This document shows, one piece after another, positions 26,555 through 41,392 of a stretch of 64,000 nt of DNA. Positions within the stretch are counted from its first letter, which is position 1, and each line of letters opens with the position of its first letter. A program made the position numbers and the translations under genes. The notes under the pieces were generated by a model. That model was not told the DNA's origin and searched no databases. It saw only the letters and a program-made list of their open reading frames with translations. The stretch comes from Candidatus Moraniibacteriota bacterium. GTDB taxonomy: Bacteria > Patescibacteriota > Minisyncoccia > Moranbacterales > UBA1568. Location: positions 780,020-844,019 of the forward strand of contig JAQTYF010000001.1 in the NCBI GenBank assembly GCA_028688415.1, given 5' to 3'.

Positions 26555-29125
26555 TTAGAAGCTGACACTCATATTTTTACTATCAGTATCAGTGTTGCCA
26601 TTTTTATCCTTTACTTCAACACTAATAGTAATAGTAGAAGCATTTTTATCAAGAGGAATGGTGTATCCTACTGTATAAGGATCAGAAGCAGTAGATCCTA
26701 CAGAAGATCCATTTATAGAGTAGGTGACAGATTCTACTCCATAAGGAGCATCAATAGAGGCTGTAAGAGAGAGCGATGCTGATGTTGTGGTATCTGGGGT
26801 GGAAAGTTTGACATCTACCCTATATTTTTTGAAATCACTTTCTTTACATTCATCTGTTGGTGGAGCGCCAAGAATAGATCCTTTTTGGTCTTTATACCAA
26901 TCTTTCACACTTTTCTCCCAATTTTTAAATTGAGAATCATTTTCAGGTTTTTCAGGAATTGGTCCACGAGGATCTTCTCTGTCAACATAAAAGAGAATAT
27001 CATGGGTACTTGTAAAATCTTTTTTATCTTGTTCGCTTTCTGGACAATATTTATTTGAAAGACAATACGTCTTTTTTTCTCCCGGAATAGAACAAACCTT
27101 CAAATCCTTTTCTTTTTCAATTTTTCCTGAAAGCATTGGTTTGTTTGTTTTTCCTTCTCCGTCACCAATTTCATCATCAGGAGTATATTTAGGAAAACTT
27201 TCTAGAGCATAATTTACCAAAGCTTTATCAAGAAAGTATCGCCAAATAGGAGCTGCGACATTCACACCGTCAGACCCCTCAAGCATTGAGCTATTATCAT
27301 TATTTCCTGCCCATACACCAACAGCAAGTGAGGGGGTATACCCAATCGTCCATCCATCGCGAAATTCGTTTGTAGTACCTGTTTTAGCAGCAACCGAACG
27401 AATATCAAATTGAAGGGGTGATTTTGCGCCAAAAACCCATTCCCGATTATTATTATTAGAAAGAACGGAATCGAGCATGGCCACATATTTTTCTTCGATA
27501 ACACGCTCTCCTGTATCAGGAGTATATTCTTCAATTTTTTGTCCTTTAGCATCTTCAATTCGCAAAATAGCGACCTTGTTGTGTCGGATACCTCCTGTTG
27601 CAAGAGTACTATAGGCATTTACATGGTCTAGGAGACGAACCTCTCCTCCTCCTAATACAAGAGATAGGCCGAGTTTCGAGGGATCATTGAGCCCTGTAAT
27701 GCCGAGGTTTTTTGCGGTGGCAATAGCATTCTTCACGCCGACGAGATAGAGTGTTTTGACAGCAGGAACGTTGAGCGATCCCCCGAGAGCTTTCATTATT
27801 GGAAGCGGACCATGAAATTTCCCATCATAATTGTTTGGTTCATAACTTTTTCCTTCAGCTGTTTCAAACTGTGTCTTTGTATCATAAAGAATAGTCTCAG
27901 GAAGATAGCCTTTTTCAAATGCCGCGAGATAAACATAGGGCTTAAAAGAAGAGCCAGGTTGTCGATTTGCAATAGCGACATTGAAATTTGGTTCAAAAGT
28001 ACAGTTCTTTCCTGTGATACACCCTGCCGGCTCTGATGTACCAAAATAATCTTTCGAGCCTACCATAGCGAGAATCTGACCAGTAAGCGGATCCATGGCC
28101 ACAAGAGCAGCATTTGCAGCTTTCCATTTTTTATTTTTTTCTGCAGATTCACGGATAGCCTCCTCAGCAATTTGTTGTTTTTCCCAATCGAGAGTTGTAA
28201 TAACCTTATATCCACCCTGTTCGACTGCCTTATCTCCGTATTTTTGCTGGAGAATATCTTTTATATACATCACAAAATGAGGAGCAGCGAGAATATTTCT
28301 CTGATTTTTAATCTTGCTCAACGTATTTGTTTCTATTGCCTCAGTAGCTTGTTCTTGGGTGATATAGCCAAGTCGCGCCATTGTCTTGAGAGCAAAAATT
28401 TTTCGTCCTATAAGTGCATCCGTATGAGAGCCGTAAGGCGAATAATATGCCGTAGCCTGAGGAAGTGACGCCACGAGAGCGGCTTCGTCGAGAGTCAGTT
28501 CTCGAGCAGGTTTTCCGAAAAATGTCTGAGATGCTGATTCAACACCATAAGCGTTGGACCCATAAGGTATTTCATTGAGATAGAGAGCGAGAATTTCGTC
28601 TTTAGAAAACTTTGTTTCGAGTTCGATAGAAAGAATAACCTCTTTAATTTTTCTTAAGAGCGTCTTTTCATTTGTCAGAAGGGAGTTTTTAACGAACTGT
28701 TGTGTAATAGTTGATCCTCCCTGAGCTTTTCCGAGATTGATGATATCTTTAAAAAGAGAACGAAAAATAGAAGTAATTTTTATACCATGATGATTATAAA
28801 AGTCTTGATCCTCGAGGCTAATAGTAGCGTATTTGATGACATCAGGCATGTCAGCAAAGTCAATAACGGTTCGTTTTTCTTCTCCATGGACATCATAGAG
28901 GAGATGCTCACCACTTCGATCATAGATTTTGGTTGATTCAATAACGACACGGTTATTGATAATGCCAGTACTTGGGAGATCTTTAGCGATATAAACAAAC
29001 CCACCAAGAGCAATCAGTACACCGAGTATAGAGAAAAAAAGCACACCTTTCCACAAAAAAGACCAGAACCTTGTTTTTGGCTTTTCTATGCCCGATATTT
29101 GTCTTCTTTTTCGAAAAAAAGTCAT
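26555..29125 (-). CDS. class A penicillin-binding protein (PBP1A, glycosyltransferase plus transpeptidase) with a C-terminal extension
   Basis: GT51 motifs (EDQDFYNHHGI, GGSTITQQ) and transpeptidase SxxK (PGSSFKP), KTGTT. Start is probably at MTFFRKRR; the ORF extends to 29257. Confidence 0.85.
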   Translation of the reverse strand: MTFFRKRRQISGIEKPKTRFWSFLWKGVLFFSILGVLIALGGFVYIAKDLPSTGIINNRVVIESTKIYDRSGEHLLYDVHGEEKRTVIDFADMPDVIKYATISLEDQDFYNHHGIKITSIFRSLFKDIINLGKAQGGSTITQQFVKNSLLTNEKTLLRKIKEVILSIELETKFSKDEILALYLNEIPYGSNAYGVESASQTFFGKPARELTLDEAALVASLPQATAYYSPYGSHTDALIGRKIFALKTMARLGYITQEQATEAIETNTLSKIKNQRNILAAPHFVMYIKDILQQKYGDKAVEQGGYKVITTLDWEKQQIAEEAIRESAEKNKKWKAANAALVAMDPLTGQILAMVGSKDYFGTSEPAGCITGKNCTFEPNFNVAIANRQPGSSFKPYVYLAAFEKGYLPETILYDTKTQFETAEGKSYEPNNYDGKFHGPLPIMKALGGSLNVPAVKTLYLVGVKNAIATAKNLGITGLNDPSKLGLSLVLGGGEVRLLDHVNAYSTLATGGIRHNKVAILRIEDAKGQKIEEYTPDTGERVIEEKYVAMLDSVLSNNNNREWVFGAKSPLQFDIRSVAAKTGTTNEFRDGWTIGYTPSLAVGVWAGNNDNSSMLEGSDGVNVAAPIWRYFLDKALVNYALESFPKYTPDDEIGDGEGKTNKPMLSGKIEKEKDLKVCSIPGEKKTYCLSNKYCPESEQDKKDFTSTHDILFYVDREDPRGPIPEKPENDSQFKNWEKSVKDWYKDQKGSILGAPPTDECKESDFKKYRVDVKLSTPDTTTSASLSLTASIDAPYGVESVTYSINGSSVGSTASDPYTVGYTIPLDKNASTITISVEVKDKNGNTDTDSKNMSVSF

Positions 29126-29273
29126 AGAGTAGATATGGGAGATATCTCTATTGTATAGCATAAAACAGATGAAAAGACAAGGAGTGGATTTGATTTGAAA
29201 ATTTGATTTTTTTGCTACAGAAGGTATATTTTGATAGTATTGCAAATAGAGAATCAATTATTTTTTTAGAGAG

Positions 29274-30641
29274 ATGTTTGAAAATCCAGCTGAAGTAAAA
29301 CCTAAACCAAAAGAAGAGGCACTCGATACGCAATGGTATTCTCAGTTTGAAAAAATTGGCAGTTTTCAGGCTTACGAATATTTTGATGGTGATAAACAAA
29401 CAAGAGAAAGAGAAAAACAAACATTTCTCGCTGGAGAAAAAGAAAATCCAGAGCTTGACTACCCTTTGCTGAACCTTGAAAATATAGCAAGTCGCGAGGG
29501 AGATCTTCTTCGTCTGAAAGAGTTGATCCTTAATGAGGAGGAGAATGAGGTGGTAAAACAAGTATATTGGTGGAAGCTGAATGAGAAGATTGCTGAAAAT
29601 CGTTTGCTCAAGGCAGCCGCCACTGGCGATCAGAGGAAATTCAAACGATACTCAGAATTCATCTACGGAAAACCATCACCTGAAATCTTTGCTTACTCTT
29701 TAGGAAGAGTAAGACAAATTATGAAAAAAGCAGACGAAAGTGAAAATGAGGAAATTCGAGTACTTGGTAGTGAGTTTGCCTCACTATTTTCCATAAAAGA
29801 TGCTTTTTCTGTGACTATTCCTTCAAGGGAAGTTCAAGCTGTAGCAAGAGAATCAACATTGGAAAGTGTCGGTGACTTAGTGAATATCAATGTTGACTCG
29901 GATCAAGAATTTTCTGCGGAAGAGATTAAGGTGCTTTTTGAAGGTGCGCTCCAAGAGTTATCTTCTGAAGGTTGGATAGTAGTGATTAATCCAAATAAGA
30001 GTGGTATAAGTGTCAACCAAGAAAAAAAGTCTGTAGAAATCCCTGAAAATAAAAAACTTTCTCTCCGTGCCCTCAAGGGTCTGATAGCACACGAAATTGG
30101 AACACACGCCGCTAGAAGAATTCGCGGGGAGAGAACGAAACTCAAGATGCTTGGTTTGGGATTTGATCGTTATGAAGCAGGAGAAGAAGGTATAACAGGA
30201 CTGAGAGAACAAGTCCTCGAAGGAGAGGTAAAGGACTTTTCTGGATTTGATGGGCATTTTGCTATCAGTCTTGCTACTGGGGTTGACGGCCATCCTCGTG
30301 ATTTTCGACAAACTTTTGAAATTTTAAAAAAATATTACCATCTTCAGAATATGCTGAAAGGTATGCCAAGAGAAGAATCTGAAAAAAAAGCCGAGACTTC
30401 TGCCTGGGGAAGATGTGTGAGGACATTCCGCGGGACGAATTCTCAGACTCCGGGAATTTGTTTTACGAAAGACATTATTTATCGTGAAGGAAATATAGCA
30501 ATATGGGAATCTGTTGCTAAAAATACTCCAGAAATGAGCAGGTGGGATGTGGGAAAATATGATCCTTCCAACCCACGTCATATTTGGATTCTTGATCAGT
30601 TGAATATTACTGACGAACAACTTCAGTCGCTTGAAAAATAG
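29274..30641 (+). CDS. DUF1704-like protein with HExxxH (HEIGTH) motif, putative MATCAP-like metallo-carboxypeptidase
   Basis: LIAHEIGTHAARRIRGE motif; 455 aa; convergent with the ATP-grasp operon. Confidence 0.55.
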   Translation: MFENPAEVKPKPKEEALDTQWYSQFEKIGSFQAYEYFDGDKQTREREKQTFLAGEKENPELDYPLLNLENIASREGDLLRLKELILNEEENEVVKQVYWWKLNEKIAENRLLKAAATGDQRKFKRYSEFIYGKPSPEIFAYSLGRVRQIMKKADESENEEIRVLGSEFASLFSIKDAFSVTIPSREVQAVARESTLESVGDLVNINVDSDQEFSAEEIKVLFEGALQELSSEGWIVVINPNKSGISVNQEKKSVEIPENKKLSLRALKGLIAHEIGTHAARRIRGERTKLKMLGLGFDRYEAGEEGITGLREQVLEGEVKDFSGFDGHFAISLATGVDGHPRDFRQTFEILKKYYHLQNMLKGMPREESEKKAETSAWGRCVRTFRGTNSQTPGICFTKDIIYREGNIAIWESVAKNTPEMSRWDVGKYDPSNPRHIWILDQLNITDEQLQSLEK

Positions 30642-30709: not shown

Positions 30710-31660
30710 TTACAAAGAAGATCTCTTTTCAAGGGAATCAATAAAATTTTTACAAAATTTTCTCCGATTTTCTCCGGTGATTGAGCCTTTGAACCCTATT
30801 TGATCGTTTATTTCAAAAATATAAGGAGTGCCATCTCGATCGATTCCAAAATCTATTGAATAAAAAGGAGAAGAAAATGCAGCATCAATCAGAGGGTGGA
30901 CTTTACTTACAATAGACCGAAGCGCAACAGGAGCATCCTCATACGAAAATTCAAAACATTGGCCACCCTGACTTATATTCGCGCGAAGCTCTCCTTTTTT
31001 TGGTTCACGTGCCTGGAGCAGTATAGGCGTACTGTTTATTATTATAATACGGAGGTCGTGGCGTCCAGAAATGATATTTGGCACACCATTACTCGTATCA
31101 ACAAATTTCTGAAGAATAAACTTTTTGTCTGGCACAAGAAGAGCAGAAGTGATGTTCTCTGCTTCGGTAATAATAACTCCCTTTCCGCCAAACCCGTCTA
31201 CTGGTTTGAATACTGCCATTTCTTGCGGATGGAATAATAGCCGAGCAGTTTCAAGGTCCTGTTTTGAAGAGATGGGAAAGGTTTTTGGCATGTATTCTTT
31301 GAGGAGCTCATAGGTGAGATCTTTATTGTTGGCAAGTTTTTTGAAGGCGAGAGAATTGAGTGTTTTATGATCAATGTCAGGTGTTGGGAAGTCTTTTCGT
31401 ATGCTTCGATCAAAAATGGCATCAAAAAGAACTTTCTTTTCTTGGAACTCAAATTGTTCCCCGGTAAAAAAGAGTATATTTTCAAATTCCATTCCACCGT
31501 GATGAATGGTAGGTTTTACTCCGAGATACATATCGAGCCCTCGTGATCTTCCTTCATGAAAAAGAGACCAATAAATTTCTCTACGATCGGGAATATGAGC
31601 GTATGGGTCGGTTGCTACTTCTTTTTTTGTGAAGTAGATGAGGATTTTTTTATTTGGCAT
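30710..31660 (-). CDS. ATP-grasp amidoligase (alpha-L-glutamate-ligase-like paralog)
   Basis: VFKPVDGFGGKGVII ATP-grasp motif; C-terminal YIFEIN. Confidence 0.55.
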   Translation of the reverse strand: MPNKKILIYFTKKEVATDPYAHIPDRREIYWSLFHEGRSRGLDMYLGVKPTIHHGGMEFENILFFTGEQFEFQEKKVLFDAIFDRSIRKDFPTPDIDHKTLNSLAFKKLANNKDLTYELLKEYMPKTFPISSKQDLETARLLFHPQEMAVFKPVDGFGGKGVIITEAENITSALLVPDKKFILQKFVDTSNGVPNIISGRHDLRIIIINSTPILLQAREPKKGELRANISQGGQCFEFSYEDAPVALRSIVSKVHPLIDAAFSSPFYSIDFGIDRDGTPYIFEINDQIGFKGSITGENRRKFCKNFIDSLEKRSSL

Positions 31661-32536: not shown

Positions 32537-33967
32537 CTATTTGTTCACATCGATAAGAAACTTTTTCAAATGTTTTCGTCCTATAATAACAGGATATGCC
32601 AGATGTGATCGATCGATACACGAAACTTTGGCTGGAAAAGTCAAAGCATCAACAGTGAGAGATATGAGTATTGCTGGTCGATAAGAAATACCATGAGAAG
32701 ATCGAATGAGCAGAGTGTCAGCGAGATCCGGAATAGAAGAGAAGAGTTTTTCACGTTCTTCTTTGGAAAGCTCAGTGAGAACATCTCTCCCCGCCACTTT
32801 TTCTTCGAATTTTTTTAAAACATCTTCGAATCCGAGTTGTTTCGCGAGTTCGATATCGATTGATGTCGAGTCGGCTCCAGTATCTATCTTTGCCTCCACT
32901 TCGATTTCCTTCCCATCTTTTCCTACGAGTTTTATTTTTTCGATACTTCCAATGACATGCTTACCAGAAATTTCCTCGATTTCCTCTTCGATCTCGCCAC
33001 CAAAGAGATTTTTTCCTACCCGCACTCCTCGCTCGGTTGTTTTTATTTTGAGTCCAGAAATACGCTTGAGACGTTCCTTGAGACCGCTCAAATTTGCGAG
33101 CTGGATAGAGAGTCCCGGACGGGCATTGAGTTCGAGAATCACTGGACCACGATCACGATCGATAGCGACATCTGCTCCGAGAAAACCAAGCCCTGAGACT
33201 CTCTGAGCATCAACAGCCATACGAAGAATATTGTTCCAGTACGGAATTTTTATTCCAGAAAGAGCAAGGCGCGTTCCTGGAACGTATTCGATAATATGTC
33301 CTTTTCCCAAGATAGCACTGGTTGTTGTTCCGGTAGCGAGGTCAATGCCGACTCCGATGGCGCCTTGTTGAAGGTTGGCTTTGCCGTCTGAAGCACGCGT
33401 TGGGAGGCGGAGCATGGCCATTACAGGTATATTGTTGAAGATAATAATACGTATATCAGGAATGCCCTTGAAAGCATACGGCTTGAAGAGTTTGAGGAGC
33501 TTCAATCGTTCCTCAAAAAAAGCGACATCAGGAATATTGGAAAGAGAAAATGATCCATCAATAATATTGCGGATATGATTTTTGAGATCTTCTGCGGTTA
33601 TTGTTGAGCCGTTCGCCTTGATCCAGACGAGCGGATTATTTTTTTTTCGGGCATAAACGACGACAATACCCTCTCCTCCGAAGCCACGATTCGGCTTGAG
33701 AGCAAAGCTATCAGGAAGGGATCTAAAATCGAAAGCATCAAGCTCCTCGTAATTTTTAATTTTTGCAATCAGCGTCGAAACACCAAGATTATTTTTTTGT
33801 AAAATGCGTTTACAAAGAAGTTTGCTATCCGCAATTTCCATACTTTTTCGACGATTGTAGGGTCGAATATAATCGAGATTACGGGCGTTCATACCAAGTA
33901 ATCCACGATTTTTTTTGAAGAATTCAAGCATAGAACATGACAAGAAGAAAGAAAAATTCTTTTTCAA
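32537..33967 (-). CDS. ATP-grasp (alpha-L-glutamate-ligase-like) fused to a C-terminal retropepsin-like aspartyl peptidase domain
   Basis: N-terminal GMNARNLDYIRPYN...LKPNRGFGGEGIVV...LELNARPG; C-terminal KIDTGADSTSID (D-T-G-A). Confidence 0.6.
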   Translation of the reverse strand: MKKNFSFFLSCSMLEFFKKNRGLLGMNARNLDYIRPYNRRKSMEIADSKLLCKRILQKNNLGVSTLIAKIKNYEELDAFDFRSLPDSFALKPNRGFGGEGIVVVYARKKNNPLVWIKANGSTITAEDLKNHIRNIIDGSFSLSNIPDVAFFEERLKLLKLFKPYAFKGIPDIRIIIFNNIPVMAMLRLPTRASDGKANLQQGAIGVGIDLATGTTTSAILGKGHIIEYVPGTRLALSGIKIPYWNNILRMAVDAQRVSGLGFLGADVAIDRDRGPVILELNARPGLSIQLANLSGLKERLKRISGLKIKTTERGVRVGKNLFGGEIEEEIEEISGKHVIGSIEKIKLVGKDGKEIEVEAKIDTGADSTSIDIELAKQLGFEDVLKKFEEKVAGRDVLTELSKEEREKLFSSIPDLADTLLIRSSHGISYRPAILISLTVDALTFPAKVSCIDRSHLAYPVIIGRKHLKKFLIDVNK

Positions 33968-34014: not shown

Positions 34015-34692
34015 TTAGAGATAGCGAGCAATTTTTCGAAAACGAAGATATTCCGTAATACGAAGACCTGTCCATTTGCCGAGGGAAAAATTGATAACAA
34101 AAGTAAAAAGCACCACCCAAGGATATGCTAAAAGAAGATTGGCGAGGGTTTCCCAAGAAATAAGAAAATAGCCAATAACGGAAATAACAAGTGTTTCTGT
34201 TGCAAGAATGAAAGCTATCTTGCTCCCTTTTTCTATCTGAGTAGCAATGAACTTTTCAGCAAGAGTAATCATGATAAGGAGAGGGAAGATAGAAACCGAT
34301 GCGAGACCGGTACGATGATACATCCCACCTATGACGAGTACCATAAGAATAGCAAGAGATACGATAGAGAGGGTGATGGCAACACGAGGAAGATAAAGAA
34401 GACGAAATCTTTTCAGTATGAAACGCGTAACCATTCCAACAAGAATGACGCTGACAAAAATAGCGATACCGTATTTAACTCCATTTGGATCAAACGCAAT
34501 CAACGCAAAGGTGATAATGGAGGGGGTATAGATACCGAACGCTTTGATGCCGATTACCTGACGAAAAAAAGCGACAAGAGTGGCGACAAGGGGGAGCATA
34601 AGGAGAAGAAGAACCGTCTGAAGAGGGACTCCTTGTTCGACACAAAACTGTACGAGAGAATGATAGTGCATAAAAAAATTTTCAATTTTCAA
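34015..34692 (-). CDS. polytopic (6-7 TM) membrane protein, first gene of the ATP-grasp operon
   Basis: 225 aa, almost entirely hydrophobic helices; may correspond to the 7TM module of the 7TM-inactive-transglutaminase partner proteins. Confidence 0.45.
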   Translation of the reverse strand: MKIENFFMHYHSLVQFCVEQGVPLQTVLLLLMLPLVATLVAFFRQVIGIKAFGIYTPSIITFALIAFDPNGVKYGIAIFVSVILVGMVTRFILKRFRLLYLPRVAITLSIVSLAILMVLVIGGMYHRTGLASVSIFPLLIMITLAEKFIATQIEKGSKIAFILATETLVISVIGYFLISWETLANLLLAYPWVVLFTFVINFSLGKWTGLRITEYLRFRKIARYL

Positions 34693-34768: not shown

Positions 34769-35260
34769 TTAGGAATTCTTTATAGCTTCCATTTTACGGC
34801 GACTGGCATGACAGAGAGCAACAGCGAGCGCGTCAGCAACATCGTCTGGTTTTGGTATAGCAGCAAGTTTCAGAAGTGCTTTCACCATAAGCTGTACCTG
34901 CGCCTTTTCTGCGCGTCCATAATTCGTCAAAGCTTGTTTGATTTCGAGGGGGGTGTAGTCAGAAATAGTAACACATAAATTCTCCAATGTCAATACGATA
35001 CAGCCACGAGCTTGAGCGACAGGAATGACTGTTTTTTGATTTTTGAAGAAAAAAAGTTCTTCAATACCTGCTTCCTCCGGATGATATTCATTGACAATAT
35101 CGGTAAGGTTACGAGAAATCTCGAGAAGTCGTTTGGAAAGAGGAAGATCTTTGGAAGTAGTGATGTGGCCATAAGCAACAGCAGTCGTTTTATTCCCTAG
35201 TACATCGATGACCCCCCAGCCGACAATGGCGGTACCTGGATCAATGCCGAGTATTCTCAT
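34769..35260 (-). CDS. ruvC: Holliday junction resolvase RuvC
   Basis: MRILGIDPGTAIVGWGV N-terminal catalytic Asp; 163 aa. Confidence 0.85.
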   Translation of the reverse strand: MRILGIDPGTAIVGWGVIDVLGNKTTAVAYGHITTSKDLPLSKRLLEISRNLTDIVNEYHPEEAGIEELFFFKNQKTVIPVAQARGCIVLTLENLCVTISDYTPLEIKQALTNYGRAEKAQVQLMVKALLKLAAIPKPDDVADALAVALCHASRRKMEAIKNS

Positions 35261-35298
35261 AGTGCCTGTGTTTTATAAAAAAAGAGAATGTCGTCAAA

Positions 35299-36021
35299 TT
35301 AACAAGCGTTGTTCCAGACTCGCTGTACGTCTTGATGATCCTCGAGCGTTTCGAGGAGTTTTTCGAGCGAAGAAGTATCGGTATCGCTTGGCGTTGCTGT
35401 TTGAAGCGGTATATAACCGAGCTCAGCACTTTCACAGACGATGGAGCGAGTACGAAAATATTCTTCGACAGACTGGAGTTTATCAACAGCAGTTACGACA
35501 ACAAACACTCCATCTTCAACAAAGAAATCATCAGCTCCAGATTCGAGAGTCTCTAGCTCGAGAGTCTCCACAGAATATTTTTCGAGAAGAAAAGTGATGA
35601 GTCCCGTTCTACGAAAGAGAAAACTCACCGCACCAGCGGCGACAAACTTTCCATTTCCTTTTGTCAGCAGTGATTTTATTTCGCTTACCGTACGATTTCT
35701 ATTGTCAGTCGCTGTCTCAATAATAAGTGCAACTTGACCAGGTCCATATCCTTCGTACAAAATTTCTTCAATTTGTGCGCCATCTTTGGACTCACCAGTC
35801 CCAACCTTGATTGCTCTATCGATATTTTCTTTTGGCATGTTGACGCTTTTTGCTTGGTCAATAGCCAGCCGAAGTTTAAAATTCATATCTGGATTTCCAC
35901 TTCCGCCTTCGCGAGCAGCGATAGTGATGAGTCTTCCATATTTTGTGAAAACAATTCCTCTTTTGGCATCATTGATACCTTTCTGATGTTTGTGAGTCGC
36001 CCAGTGTGAATGTCCTGACAT
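35299..36021 (-). CDS. yebC: YebC/PmpR-family transcriptional regulator
   Basis: MSGHSHWATHKHQKG hallmark N-terminus. Start chosen at the internal Met. Confidence 0.85.
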   Translation of the reverse strand: MSGHSHWATHKHQKGINDAKRGIVFTKYGRLITIAAREGGSGNPDMNFKLRLAIDQAKSVNMPKENIDRAIKVGTGESKDGAQIEEILYEGYGPGQVALIIETATDNRNRTVSEIKSLLTKGNGKFVAAGAVSFLFRRTGLITFLLEKYSVETLELETLESGADDFFVEDGVFVVVTAVDKLQSVEEYFRTRSIVCESAELGYIPLQTATPSDTDTSSLEKLLETLEDHQDVQRVWNNAC

Positions 36022-36106
36022 AGAGTAAAAATAAAAAAGAAATAAAAAACAAAAGACAATCCATTCTATCAACTTTGTGAAAAAAATCAACCTCTGAAAG
36101 AATTGT

Positions 36107-38368: not shown

Positions 38369-41300
38369 TTAGATATCGGTGACACGTTGTACTTCTTCGA
38401 GAGTCGTTTTGCCTTCAAGAACAGAGAGAATACCATCTTGAGCAAGAGTGATCATGCCGAGACTGATCGCTTTTTCTTCTATCTCACTTGTGAGAGCTCC
38501 TCTCGCAATGAGTTCAGAAATTTCTTTTTCAATGAAGAGTGTCTCTGCAATCACTATTTGTCCTAAGAAACCGGTGCCACCACAAGATTCACATCCTTTT
38601 GTTTTAGGAAGAACAGTGTTTTTTAGAAGAGTTTCTTTTTCTTCAGATGCAGGGAGAGATGCGAGAGTTTCTCTTATAATACGTTGTTCTTCTTCTGTGC
38701 CAACCGAAGATTCTTTGCATTTTTGACAAATTCTTCGTACGAGACGTTGTGCTATAAAGAGATTGCCCGTATTGGCAATATCATCATTACTGACACCCAT
38801 CGCTGACAATCGTGATACAGCGCCTGATGCTGAATTGGCATGGAGCGTAGAGAGGACGAGATGACCAGTACTCGCTGCCTGGACTGCTATCTGAGCAGTC
38901 TCATCATCACGGATTTCTCCTACCATCAAAATATTTGGGTTTTGACGCATCAGCGAACGAAGGGCTGTCGCAAAGGTATACCCCTCGCTTTCCTTGGTTT
39001 GAGTTTGGAGGATACCAGGCATCTGATATTCGATAGGGTCTTCGACGGTAATAATCTTCACTTCTGGTGTATTGAGTTTTGCGAGGATGCTGTAGAGAGT
39101 AGTTGTTTTTCCAGAGCCCGTTGGTCCTGTGCTCAAAATAACGCCATGTGATTTATTCATCGCCTTGTGGATGGTGTCGAGGTTTTGCTTTCGGATATGA
39201 AGTGTATCGAGATCGAGTTTTACCATAGACTGGTTGAGTATACGCATCACAATGGTTTCGCCGAAACCTCCGAGAATGATAGACAAACGAATGTCAATTG
39301 TTTCTTTCTTCCCACCTTCTTTCTCCAGAGTGAGCGAGAAACGACCATCGACGGTTCCTGATCGTTCTCCTGATTTGAGTCCTGCCGCGAGTTTGATTTC
39401 TGCGACGAACGTCGGATATTCACTGAGAGGGATGCGGGCTGCTGTCTGGAGAATTCCGTCGATACGAAAACGAATATCAACAAATTCACCCACAGGTTCG
39501 ATATGGATATCTCCAGCGTGGAAGAAGAGTGCTCCAGCAAAAAGAGAAGGAAAAAAGAGTCGTGAATCGAGCGTAGAGAGATAGCGTGAAAAATTTTCGA
39601 GCGAAGAAATATATTGTTTTGTCTCAACAAAAATTTGTTCTGAAATATGAGTAGAACGAGAAAGTTCGCTTGGCATTAATTCTGTATAGATAGCACGAAG
39701 CGATTCTGTTTGATCAGCGACACGCCATACTTCATCGAGTGTCGTGATGCCATCGAGTGCCTTGAGTATACCGTCTTGTGTCATGGTAATCATACCATTC
39801 TCGAGAGCGACACGGAGGATTTCTTGTTCTGTTCCCATATCATTGACTGCTTGGATAATCTCCTGTGTCATCGTCAATACTTCAAAAATACCGACACGCC
39901 CATGGTATCCGGTAAGATGACATTTGGCACAACCGACTGATTTGTAGAGAGTTTTGACTTCTTTGGGGAGCGAGAGCTTTGCTTTTGGTGAAATGATGGT
40001 GATAAGTTTGAGAATAGAATCAATTGTTTCTTGGGCTGGTACATAAGCTTCTTTACAGTGCTCACAAAGCACCCTCACGAGACGTTGAGCGATAATAGCA
40101 TTGACAGCGGAAGCGAGGAGAGAAGGTTTTACTCCGAGTTCCATAAAACGAGGAATAGACGCTGCTGCGCTGTTGGAATGAAGGGTGGAAAATACAAGAT
40201 GTCCAGTGAGTGCCGCATTGATCGTGATATCAGCGGTCTCATCATCACGGATTTCCCCAACGAGAATAATATCAGGATCCTGACGGACAATCGCTCTGAG
40301 CGCAGTCGCAAAGGTGTATTCTTTATTTTTGGACACTTCGGTCTGTACAACACCAGGAAGAGTATATTCGATCGGATCTTCGATAGTGATTACTTTGGTA
40401 TCTGGCTGGTTGATGTGGTTTAAGAGTGTGTAGAGCGTTGTTGTTTTTCCAGAACCCGTTGGTCCAGTGTTCAAAATGAGTCCGTTTGGTTTCGTGATTT
40501 GTTTCGTGATTTCCTCGTAAGCTAACCCGCGAAACCCAAGCAACGTAACATCGACAACAACATCCTCTCCAGAGAGAAGACGCATATTGATATTCTCACC
40601 GTATTTTCCTGGGATACTGTTGACACGAACGTCAATGCGTTTTTCTTCGAGTGTGATGAAAAAATGACCATCTTGAGCCTCTTTTCTGACATTGAGACGC
40701 ATCTTTCCGAGCATTTTGATACGAGAGAGTATGAGATGGTATCGTTCAGACGGGATATTACCTATTTCTTGTAAAACACCATCGATACGATATCGAAGTC
40801 GGACAGCATCTTCTGCGGGTTCGAGATGGATATCGCTTGCGCCGAGTTTACGAGCACCTGCCAGAATGATTTCCATCGATCGAGAAGTATTCGCTGTCAC
40901 ATTTTCTTTGAGAGAAATAAGGTCTCCGAAATCTTTTTCAAATTTCTCGAGGTCCGCATCATCGAGAGAAACTCGGACAAGATTGAACGTATCGATGAAT
41001 GTGCGTTTAGTATAACTGTTCCAAGCACGGTCGAGTGATGGTTGTGAAGCGATGAAAACCTGACCTTTCCATCCGTGTGAAGTACAGAGATCTTTGATGT
41101 ATTGGAGTGTTTCTCTTTCATTCGGATTGAGAATAGCAAAATAAGCTTGTATATTTTTTTTATTGAAGAGTACAAAACGATATTTTTTTGCTTCTTCTTC
41201 TGGAACAAGAAGAACATCTTCGGTGCTGACAGGAAAAACATGGAGATCGATATAAGCAAGTCCGCTTTTATTCGCCAGAAGAGACGCTTGTTCTTCAATA

Positions 41301-41392
41301 GACACTTCCCGCATTTTCTGGAGTATTTTTTCAGACTGGATATCTTTTTCATCTGAGTGTGAGGATGAATTTCCTTGGATAACCGTTGTCAT
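38369..41392 (-). CDS. tandem-duplicated GspE/PilB-type secretion ATPase (two complete ATPase modules in one 1007-aa polypeptide)
   Basis: Two Walker A sites (NTGPTGSGKTTTLYTLL and STGPTGSGKTTTLYSIL). Two Asp-box and His-box regions. Two tetracysteine zinc motifs (CEHCK...CAKCHLTGYHGR and CQKCK...CESCGGTGFLGQ). Confidence 0.8.
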   Translation of the reverse strand: MTTVIQGNSSSHSDEKDIQSEKILQKMREVSIEEQASLLANKSGLAYIDLHVFPVSTEDVLLVPEEEAKKYRFVLFNKKNIQAYFAILNPNERETLQYIKDLCTSHGWKGQVFIASQPSLDRAWNSYTKRTFIDTFNLVRVSLDDADLEKFEKDFGDLISLKENVTANTSRSMEIILAGARKLGASDIHLEPAEDAVRLRYRIDGVLQEIGNIPSERYHLILSRIKMLGKMRLNVRKEAQDGHFFITLEEKRIDVRVNSIPGKYGENINMRLLSGEDVVVDVTLLGFRGLAYEEITKQITKPNGLILNTGPTGSGKTTTLYTLLNHINQPDTKVITIEDPIEYTLPGVVQTEVSKNKEYTFATALRAIVRQDPDIILVGEIRDDETADITINAALTGHLVFSTLHSNSAAASIPRFMELGVKPSLLASAVNAIIAQRLVRVLCEHCKEAYVPAQETIDSILKLITIISPKAKLSLPKEVKTLYKSVGCAKCHLTGYHGRVGIFEVLTMTQEIIQAVNDMGTEQEILRVALENGMITMTQDGILKALDGITTLDEVWRVADQTESLRAIYTELMPSELSRSTHISEQIFVETKQYISSLENFSRYLSTLDSRLFFPSLFAGALFFHAGDIHIEPVGEFVDIRFRIDGILQTAARIPLSEYPTFVAEIKLAAGLKSGERSGTVDGRFSLTLEKEGGKKETIDIRLSIILGGFGETIVMRILNQSMVKLDLDTLHIRKQNLDTIHKAMNKSHGVILSTGPTGSGKTTTLYSILAKLNTPEVKIITVEDPIEYQMPGILQTQTKESEGYTFATALRSLMRQNPNILMVGEIRDDETAQIAVQAASTGHLVLSTLHANSASGAVSRLSAMGVSNDDIANTGNLFIAQRLVRRICQKCKESSVGTEEEQRIIRETLASLPASEEKETLLKNTVLPKTKGCESCGGTGFLGQIVIAETLFIEKEISELIARGALTSEIEEKAISLGMITLAQDGILSVLEGKTTLEEVQRVTDI

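Follow-up and report, generated by a model that had tools for sequence, protein, structure and literature searches.

On the minus strand of a 64,000-nucleotide stretch of a Candidatus Moraniibacteriota genome (assembly GCA_028688415.1, contig JAQTYF010000001.1, positions 780,020 to 844,019; hereafter the window), a single gene encodes an ATP-grasp ligase and a retropepsin-type aspartic protease in one protein. The gene is real and is conserved widely in bacteria of the candidate phyla radiation (CPR). By analogy with the ligase-protease pairs RimK-RimB and RloC-RloA, it is probable that the protein is a bifunctional cytoplasmic enzyme which, together with a seven-transmembrane (7TM) partner, would make acidic tails or peptides at the membrane, probably of polyglutamate, and trim them in a coupled manner. 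Coupled ligation and proteolysis had already been proposed for this gene in an original prediction made from the DNA letters, and the proposal agrees with what is described for these two homologous pairs.

The open reading frame (ORF) was predicted at 476 amino acids (aa), and a frame of this length is indeed present on the minus strand, open from an upstream TTG at 33967 (32537..33967). A start at the ATG at 33931, which gives 464 aa and the N-terminus MLEFFKKNRG..., appears likelier, because an NCBI protein (P0001, from a Candidatus Moranbacteria metagenome-assembled genome, MAG) that is 100% identical to the window protein and most homologues have 464 aa. No clear ribosome-binding site was found ahead of either the TTG at 33967 or the ATG at 33931. 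Below, the limits of the ATP-grasp domain (residues 29-304) follow the 476-aa numbering, and the catalytic D350 follows the 464-aa numbering.

The original prediction had also raised the doubt that a frameshift or an assembly error might have joined two adjacent genes. Such an artefact is ruled out with near certainty, as the same continuous ORF recurs at full length in 40 genomic loci and in over 120 protein clusters, and the junction sequence is itself conserved. Public databases already contain the fusion proteins, annotated with both Pfam domains. No description of this fusion was found in the literature full text that was covered, the foundational 2009 comparative-genomics survey of ATP-grasp systems lying outside that coverage.

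Domain architecture and conservation of the fusion protein

The ATP-grasp module, which the original prediction had placed at residues 1 to about 320, is recognised by Pfam PF14397 (ATPgrasp_ST) over residues 29-304 with an E-value of 1.1e-68 and 231.9 bits, against a cut-off of 31.4. The NCBIfam model TIGR02291 ('alpha-L-glutamate ligase-like protein') reaches 295.3 bits and stays under its cut-off of 314.2 because the fusion replaces the C-terminal 26 positions of the profile. Matches to PF08443 are limited to residues 249-287 (27.9 bits), and TIGR00768 scores 32.6 against a cut-off of 143.4. The ATP-grasp motifs KPNRGFGGEG, D254 and E267-x-N269-x-R271 are invariant in an alignment of 32 homologues, which also underlies the statements below on single residues that are invariant or nearly so. 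Modelled over its full length with AlphaFold2, the protein reaches an average predicted local distance difference test score (pLDDT) of 72.7. When this full model was searched against the PDB with Foldseek, its N-terminal domain came closest to RimK (4iwx, 7qys, 5zct) and ArgX/LysX, and its C-terminal part matched the DUF785 structure 2pma and RloA (9g58).

The C-terminal domain had been read as retropepsin-like from its D-T/S-G-A signature, and a search with PF05618, suggested at the time as a check, supports that reading with a match at residues 338-475 (E 1.5e-8; 35.1 bits versus a gathering cut-off of 27). Weaker profile matches were obtained with Asp_protease_2, gag-asp_proteas and the NCBIfam models RloA1-3, the last at 25-42 bits against cut-offs of 210-280. 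A sequence search of the PDB returned the RloA structures 9g58 (E 2e-4) and 9g59 (7.5e-4). Modelled alone, the C-terminal 152 residues have a pLDDT of 80.4, and the fold search of this model in the PDB returned retropepsin-fold structures only, with E-values from 1e-5 to 5e-4: 2pma, the protease of human immunodeficiency virus 1 (HIV-1), RloA/RloA2 (9g58/9g59), Ddi1, Rickettsia APRc and the foamy-virus (SFV) protease. Taken together, the profile matches and the predicted fold place the retropepsin assignment far beyond chance. A six-frame hidden Markov model (HMM) search found no second retropepsin gene in the window.

The domain contains KIDTGADSTSID, which includes DTGA. This motif is DTGA in 118 and DSGA in the other 2 of the 120 listed homologues, and its residues D350, G352 and A353 are invariant, as are I449 and G451 of IIGRK, the second retropepsin signature. 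We take IIGRK to correspond to the HIV-1 protease segment I-I-G-R-N. The family PF05618 is named 'Zn_protease' in the Pfam library used and 'RimB-like' in newer annotation (clan AA). The 'zinc protease' of the older name is ruled out here by DTGA, IIGRK and the retropepsin fold; RimB itself is insensitive to ethylenediaminetetraacetic acid (EDTA) and phenanthroline and needs its catalytic Asp (PMC11957791). Three basic residues, K348, R418 and R441, are invariant or nearly so, and in the alignment to 9g58 their offsets from the catalytic Asp (-2, +66 and +89) are those of K46, R114 and R137 in RloA, which bind polyglutamate and are needed for polyglutamate cleavage and for function in vivo (PMC12239564). 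Relatives with a decayed DTGA have lost these basic residues too, which speaks for their part in catalysis on such a substrate.

The fusion protein has no signal peptide, and its single Cys is not conserved, so that it is without the Cys pair of the periplasmic RloA. A cytoplasmic location of the protease domain is consistent with these two features and with the position of the domain C-terminal to a cytoplasmic ATP-grasp domain.

Between the two domains lies an acidic linker, which had been predicted as EEEIEEISG and is found as the slightly longer EIEEEIEEISG. It belongs to a conserved motif, LFGG-EIE-EEIEE(I/L)SGK; the junction GGEIEEEIEE(I/L)SGK(R/H)VIG is almost invariant in the 120 homologues listed, and the motif is still recognisable in relatives down to about 40% identity. 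Residues 311-324, between the domains, form the main internal stretch of low confidence in the AlphaFold2 model (pLDDT <50). The linker is too well conserved for a mere spacer, and it may act as an amphipathic docking helix.

A linker that is Glu-rich, highly conserved and flexible in the model could also point to a polyprotein-like precursor, in which a Glu-specific retropepsin would cut its own linker and free protease and ligase, as in Gag-Pol; RimB and RloA do cut internal Glu-rich stretches. We judge such self-cleavage distinctly unlikely. The longest Glu run in the linker is 3, against at least 5-6 for RimB and at least 8 for RloA, whose cleavage is blocked by residues that interrupt a Glu run, and the same motif persists in relatives whose catalytic motif is dead. 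The spacing of I and E (I2, I6, I9) would fit an amphipathic helix rather than an extended substrate, and RimBK, a natural fusion of a related protease and ligase, was purified and assayed as a hybrid protein (PMC11957791).

In the 120 listed clusters (72-100% identity; NCBI, JGI, ENA and Logan assemblies), protein length is about 434-508 aa, and both Pfam domains are present in nearly all of them. Species-representative genomes, when scanned, gave 44 loci, 40 of them with the full-length fusion, at identities of 40-82%. The hosts are Moranbacteria, Paceibacteria, Dojkabacteria, Collierbacteria and other Microgenomates and Parcubacteria, all of them Patescibacteria. Some loci (L003, L006, L007, L012, L013, L015, L016, L020-L022, L034, L035 and L043) come from MAGs labelled 'uncultured Bdellovibrionales', 'Micavibrio' or 'Gammaproteobacteria'. 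Most of these loci show 59-82% identity and the gene order of Moranbacteria, so that their taxonomic labels are probably wrong; L043, the record labelled 'Gammaproteobacteria', is a fragment only, 46% identical.

A wider search of 1.84 billion representatives yielded 2067 relatives, of which the best 150 clusters (50% level) were classified. These comprise 35 two-domain fusions of 400-640 aa, 33 longer fusions, 35 proteins shorter than 400 aa that have no retropepsin match (unfused ligases or fragments), and a remaining 47 that are either short fragments with the domain or longer proteins without a detectable match. Decayed catalytic motifs read, for example, NTGD, NTTR, DTSR or DSSN and occur among the relatives P0130, P0141, P0142, P0144, P0146, P0147 and P0187.

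The 7TM partner and the relation to Rlo and Rim systems

In each of the 40 loci that include upstream DNA, the gene next to the fusion on its upstream side is a 7TM_transglut gene, as found by tblastn of the window neighbours at the 44 loci; the two genes are separated by about 80 nt at most, often by no more than a few nt, and in some loci they overlap slightly. The window 7TM protein corresponds to the membrane half of RloB, matching the RloB profile over positions 306-505 of 508 only (79 bits versus a cut-off of 900), and it has neither a transglutaminase nor any other extracellular domain. Its cytoplasmic C-terminal juxtamembrane motif, LGKWxGLRxxEYxRFRK, is basic and conserved across phyla (loci L001-L043). 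The extreme C-terminus is not conserved, the last residue being L, Q, K, F, E, D, N or S. The outer domain of the 7TM protein varies by lineage: it is absent in the window, consists of PKD repeats in L045 and L046, and is an inactive transglutaminase in Proteobacteria. The conserved core is thus a 7TM protein, with an outer domain that is variable or absent, and a cytoplasmic RloC-type ligase that carries peptidase modules. The next gene upstream of the window 7TM gene is that of RuvC. This obligatory 7TM partner was overlooked in the original prediction, as were the accessory ligases and the carboxypeptidase encoded nearby.

The same three protein families make up the Rlo operon characterised in P. 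aeruginosa (Lormand et al., mBio 2025; PMC12239564): a PF14397/TIGR02291-type ATP-grasp ligase (RloC), a PF05618 retropepsin with DTGA (RloA) and a PF14402 7TM protein (RloB). The Rlo system affects osmotic tolerance, biofilm formation, beta-lactam sensitivity and cell shape; RloA acts in the same pathway as RloC and cuts Glu runs of at least 8 by way of K46, R114 and R137, and mutants without the protease are relieved of their defects when rloB or rloC is lost as well (PMC12239564). Both systems share the polyglutamate-binding K/R residues and show tight gene linkage. In the window, however, ligase and protease form one polypeptide, so that two genes stand in place of three, and the 7TM protein is without the inactive transglutaminase domain of RloB. 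RloA is secreted to the periplasm and has a signal peptide and a disulfide pair, whereas the protease described here has neither. The hosts differ too, since the fusion is found in Patescibacteria and RloB is 96% restricted to Proteobacteria (PMC12239564). Scores here fall under the NCBI Rlo equivalog cut-offs, which points to a distant relative whose specificity may differ. The reading that fits the fusion best is that of an RloC and an RloA joined in one enzyme, with a minimal RloB as its partner.

The Rim system offers the second comparison. RimB is a dimeric retropepsin that removes the polyglutamate added by RimK to ribosomal protein S6; its activity depends on the aspartate of its DTG and on a run of 5-6 or more Glu in the substrate, and it stimulates both the ATPase of RimK (about fourfold, by direct interaction) and poly-alpha-glutamate synthesis (PMC11957791). 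As may be the case for the fusion, RimK-RimB(-RimA) of Pseudomonas pairs a cytoplasmic ATP-grasp enzyme that adds alpha-linked glutamates with a cytoplasmic dimeric retropepsin that removes them, and RimK is the best structural match of the N-terminal domain of the fusion. The differences are that RimK and RimB are separate proteins, that the ligase belongs to another ATP-grasp subfamily, that the target (RpsF) is known and that there is no membrane partner. A retropepsin-like protease and an ATP-grasp ligase on a single polypeptide have already been described and assayed in RimBK, a natural fused form represented by DP2392 of Desulfotalea psychrophila, whose protease part cuts polyglutamylated RpsF (Little et al., JBC 2025; PMC11957791). 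RimBK occurs mainly in Flavobacteriales and Rhodobacterales (PMC11957791). In RimBK the protease is N-terminal and the ligase is of the RimK family (PF08443), whereas the protease is C-terminal and the ligase of RloC type in the fusion described here; no 7TM partner has been reported for RimBK. The present system is a compact, all-cytoplasmic variant of the Rlo/Rim systems that add and trim glutamate tails, and its kind is not new. With it, a system regarded so far as proteobacterial in essence reaches into the CPR, whose members have a single membrane and very small genomes.

Proposed function and alternatives

In the mechanism that we propose, the ATP-grasp domain would spend ATP on joining amino acids, L-glutamate being the most probable, to a carboxylate. 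At the cytoplasmic face of the membrane this would yield either a protein with an acidic tail or a free peptide that resembles poly-alpha-glutamate. Oligomerisation of the ligase would bring two retropepsin domains together to form one Asp-dyad site, and this site, lined by K348, R418 and R441, would cut the acidic polymer. The fusion would fix ligase and protease at a ratio of 1:1 and therefore allow local control of the length of the tail or peptide. As RimB does for RimK, the protease domain may in addition stimulate the ligase. The 7TM protein could serve as an anchor, a sensor or an exporter.

Several observations weigh against coupled synthesis and trimming of polyglutamate. No RloC substrate is known, even from Pseudomonas, and the Pseudomonas protease is periplasmic and thus in the opposite compartment (PMC12239564). 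The RimBK of D. psychrophila had protease activity but no RpsF glutamylation (PMC11957791). The scores lie under the equivalog cut-offs, at 295 versus 314 for TIGR02291 and at most 42 versus at least 210 for RloA1-3. Finally, the catalytic motif is lost in 12 of the 35 two-domain fusions and in 25 of the 33 longer fusions among the best 150 clusters.

This decay, with the polyglutamate-binding arginines lost at the same time, suggests that the protease domain has repeatedly turned into a non-catalytic module, and the domain can serve such a role in other lineages, where decay is frequent. The C-terminal domain of the window protein might likewise be mainly non-catalytic. Its role would then be to bind acidic tails, to promote dimerisation or to activate the ligase by an allosteric effect, with proteolysis secondary or absent. 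The degenerate motif in many related fusions would fit this explanation, as would a linker motif that is kept even where the catalytic Asp is lost and the roughly fourfold boost that RimB gives to the RimK ATPase by direct interaction (PMC11957791). In the clade of the window, however, D(T/S)GA is found in 120 of the 120 listed proteins, and IIGRK and the three basic channel residues are conserved, a pattern that indicates selection for catalysis and makes a mainly non-catalytic domain doubtful there.

The nature of the product bears on a further explanation, in which the ligase would make no polyglutamate but another molecule, for example a different peptide, an envelope component or a modified 7TM loop, and the protease would process a specific protein, for example the 7TM partner or an envelope enzyme. 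The unknown substrate of RloC leaves room for it, and the PF14397 family is named 'sugar-transfer associated'. Several ATP-grasp ligases, and in L045 an aminotransferase as well, cluster with the fusion, suggesting a mixed product; in Moranbacteria the cluster adjoins the gene of penicillin-binding protein (PBP) 1a, and the Pseudomonas Rlo phenotypes concern cell shape and cell-wall antibiotics. We nevertheless consider such a product fairly unlikely, given that the polyglutamate-binding basic residues are conserved, that the nearest structural relatives RimK, LysX and ArgX all ligate at alpha-carboxylates of Glu-type tails, and that the PBP1a adjacency is confined to one lineage.

A more specific form of the Rlo comparison is tentative, and its probability is low. 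Here the two-gene CPR module would be a minimal and wholly cytoplasm-facing form of Rlo, the ligase substrate would arise or be retained on the inner side of the 7TM protein, and the linker helix would gate the protease or the ligase by acting as a pseudo-substrate or a docking element. Candidate substrates would be the basic juxtamembrane tail of the 7TM protein or a poly-acidic peptide handed over for export. If true, this would revise the view of Rlo as a system specific to Gammaproteobacteria with periplasmic substrates, and it would link the tail-writing and tail-erasing families ATP-grasp, retropepsin and MATCAP in one membrane-coupled machine.

Coupled ligation and trimming remains the reading that we favour, on the grounds of the domain identities, the invariant ligase and protease motifs, the conserved basic residues, the breadth of conservation of the fusion, the constant 7TM neighbour and the homologous ligase-protease pairs. 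The fusion also has some consequences of its own. It places the protease naturally in the compartment and the polypeptide of the ligase, which constrains models for the Pseudomonas Rlo system, and it provides a compact single-protein construct for biochemical reconstitution. Its conservation in the CPR suggests an important role in the envelope or in tuning the proteome.

Gene neighbourhood

The coordinates of the fusion gene, its domains and motifs and the neighbouring genes are given in Table 1.

Table 1. Features of the fusion gene and its neighbours, in window coordinates.
Feature	Position	Strand	Evidence
Fusion gene, 464 aa	32537..33931	-	ORF listing, translation; stop codon 32537-32539
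ATP-grasp ligase domain, RloC type (PF14397 / TIGR02291-like)	33056..33883	-	Pfam, TIGR02291, Foldseek, motifs
Acidic linker EIEEEIEEISG, 11 residues	32963..32995	-	Coordinates checked by translation
Retropepsin-like aspartic peptidase domain (PF05618; RimB/RloA-like)	32543..32956	-	Pfam, PDB sequence matches, fold search
Catalytic motif D350-T-G-A (464-aa numbering; context KIDTGA)	32873..32884	-	Translation check
IIGRK, second retropepsin signature	32573..32587	-	Translation check
Basic-residue span: K348 (32888-32890), R418 (32678-32680), R441 (32609-32611)	32609..32890	-	Codons checked
7TM membrane protein (7TM_transglut, PF14402)	34015..34692	-	PF14402 E 2.3e-28; RloB profile
Accessory RimK-family ATP-grasp ligase, 305 aa	31615..32532	-	PF08443 E 5e-28; TIGR00768 107 bits
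Second accessory ATP-grasp ligase, glutathione-synthetase-like, 316 aa	30710..31660	-	ORF listing, Pfam, NCBIfam
MATCAP / DUF1704 (QEGLA) carboxypeptidase-like protein	29274..30641	+	PF08014 E 5e-18; TIGR02421

The accessory ligase of the RimK family, which is found in many related loci, starts 4 nt downstream of the stop codon of the fusion gene. The two accessory ATP-grasp ORFs overlap by 46 nt (31615-31660), with a comparable overlap of 28 nt in L001, and either translational coupling or a wrongly called start may account for it. In the window the MATCAP-like gene and the ligase operon converge, and in L019, L020, L022 and L031 they are co-directional, a difference that implies a local inversion. 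Of the 44 loci, about 25 have accessory ligase or MATCAP genes. The idea that a precursor peptide is encoded in the cluster itself was considered and rejected, as the gaps between the genes are too short (4 nt, the 46-nt overlap, 47-83 nt, 68 nt and 76 nt).

The same neighbours recur as parts of longer fusions. ATPgrasp_ST, retropepsin and MATCAP domains stand on one chain in P0122, P0131 and proteins of about 800 aa that are common in Patescibacteria and Peregrinibacteria, and ATPgrasp_ST, retropepsin and a further ATP-grasp domain stand on one chain in P0156. These fusions of MATCAP or an extra ATP-grasp domain elsewhere tie the neighbouring genes of the window to the same pathway. They also offer a 'Rosetta stone' argument that all of these activities would be directed at one product at the cytoplasmic membrane face, and the two extra ligases and the MATCAP-like carboxypeptidase would probably extend and shorten the same substrate by further residues. 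Both triple fusions examined for their position, in L045 and L046, lie directly downstream of a 7TM_transglut gene with extracellular PKD domains. In the triple fusions of about 800 aa (P0122, P0130, P0131 and P0147; L045 5001-7376 and L046 5001-7397) the retropepsin-like domain is shortened.

In the eukaryotic tubulin code, TTL/TTLL ATP-grasp ligases write acidic or aromatic C-terminal tails, and MATCAP and other carboxypeptidases erase them. The present system may be compared with it on account of the MATCAP-family domain in the neighbouring gene and in the triple fusions. It differs in being bacterial and without tubulin, in having a retropepsin as an additional eraser and in its coupling to a 7TM membrane protein.

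The Moranbacteria cluster is consistently flanked upstream by YebC-RuvC (34769-36090, minus strand) and downstream by a class A PBP (PBP1a-like; 26555-29257, minus strand), and YebC-RuvC also lies upstream of the 7TM gene in the distant locus L045. Both adjacencies may be conserved synteny only. Further along the window, an ORF of 1007 aa (38369-41392, minus strand) contains two tandem secretion ATPase modules of the GspE/PilB type with two GPTGSGKTTTLY Walker A motifs, and it looks like an internally duplicated ATPase of type IV pilus or type II secretion.

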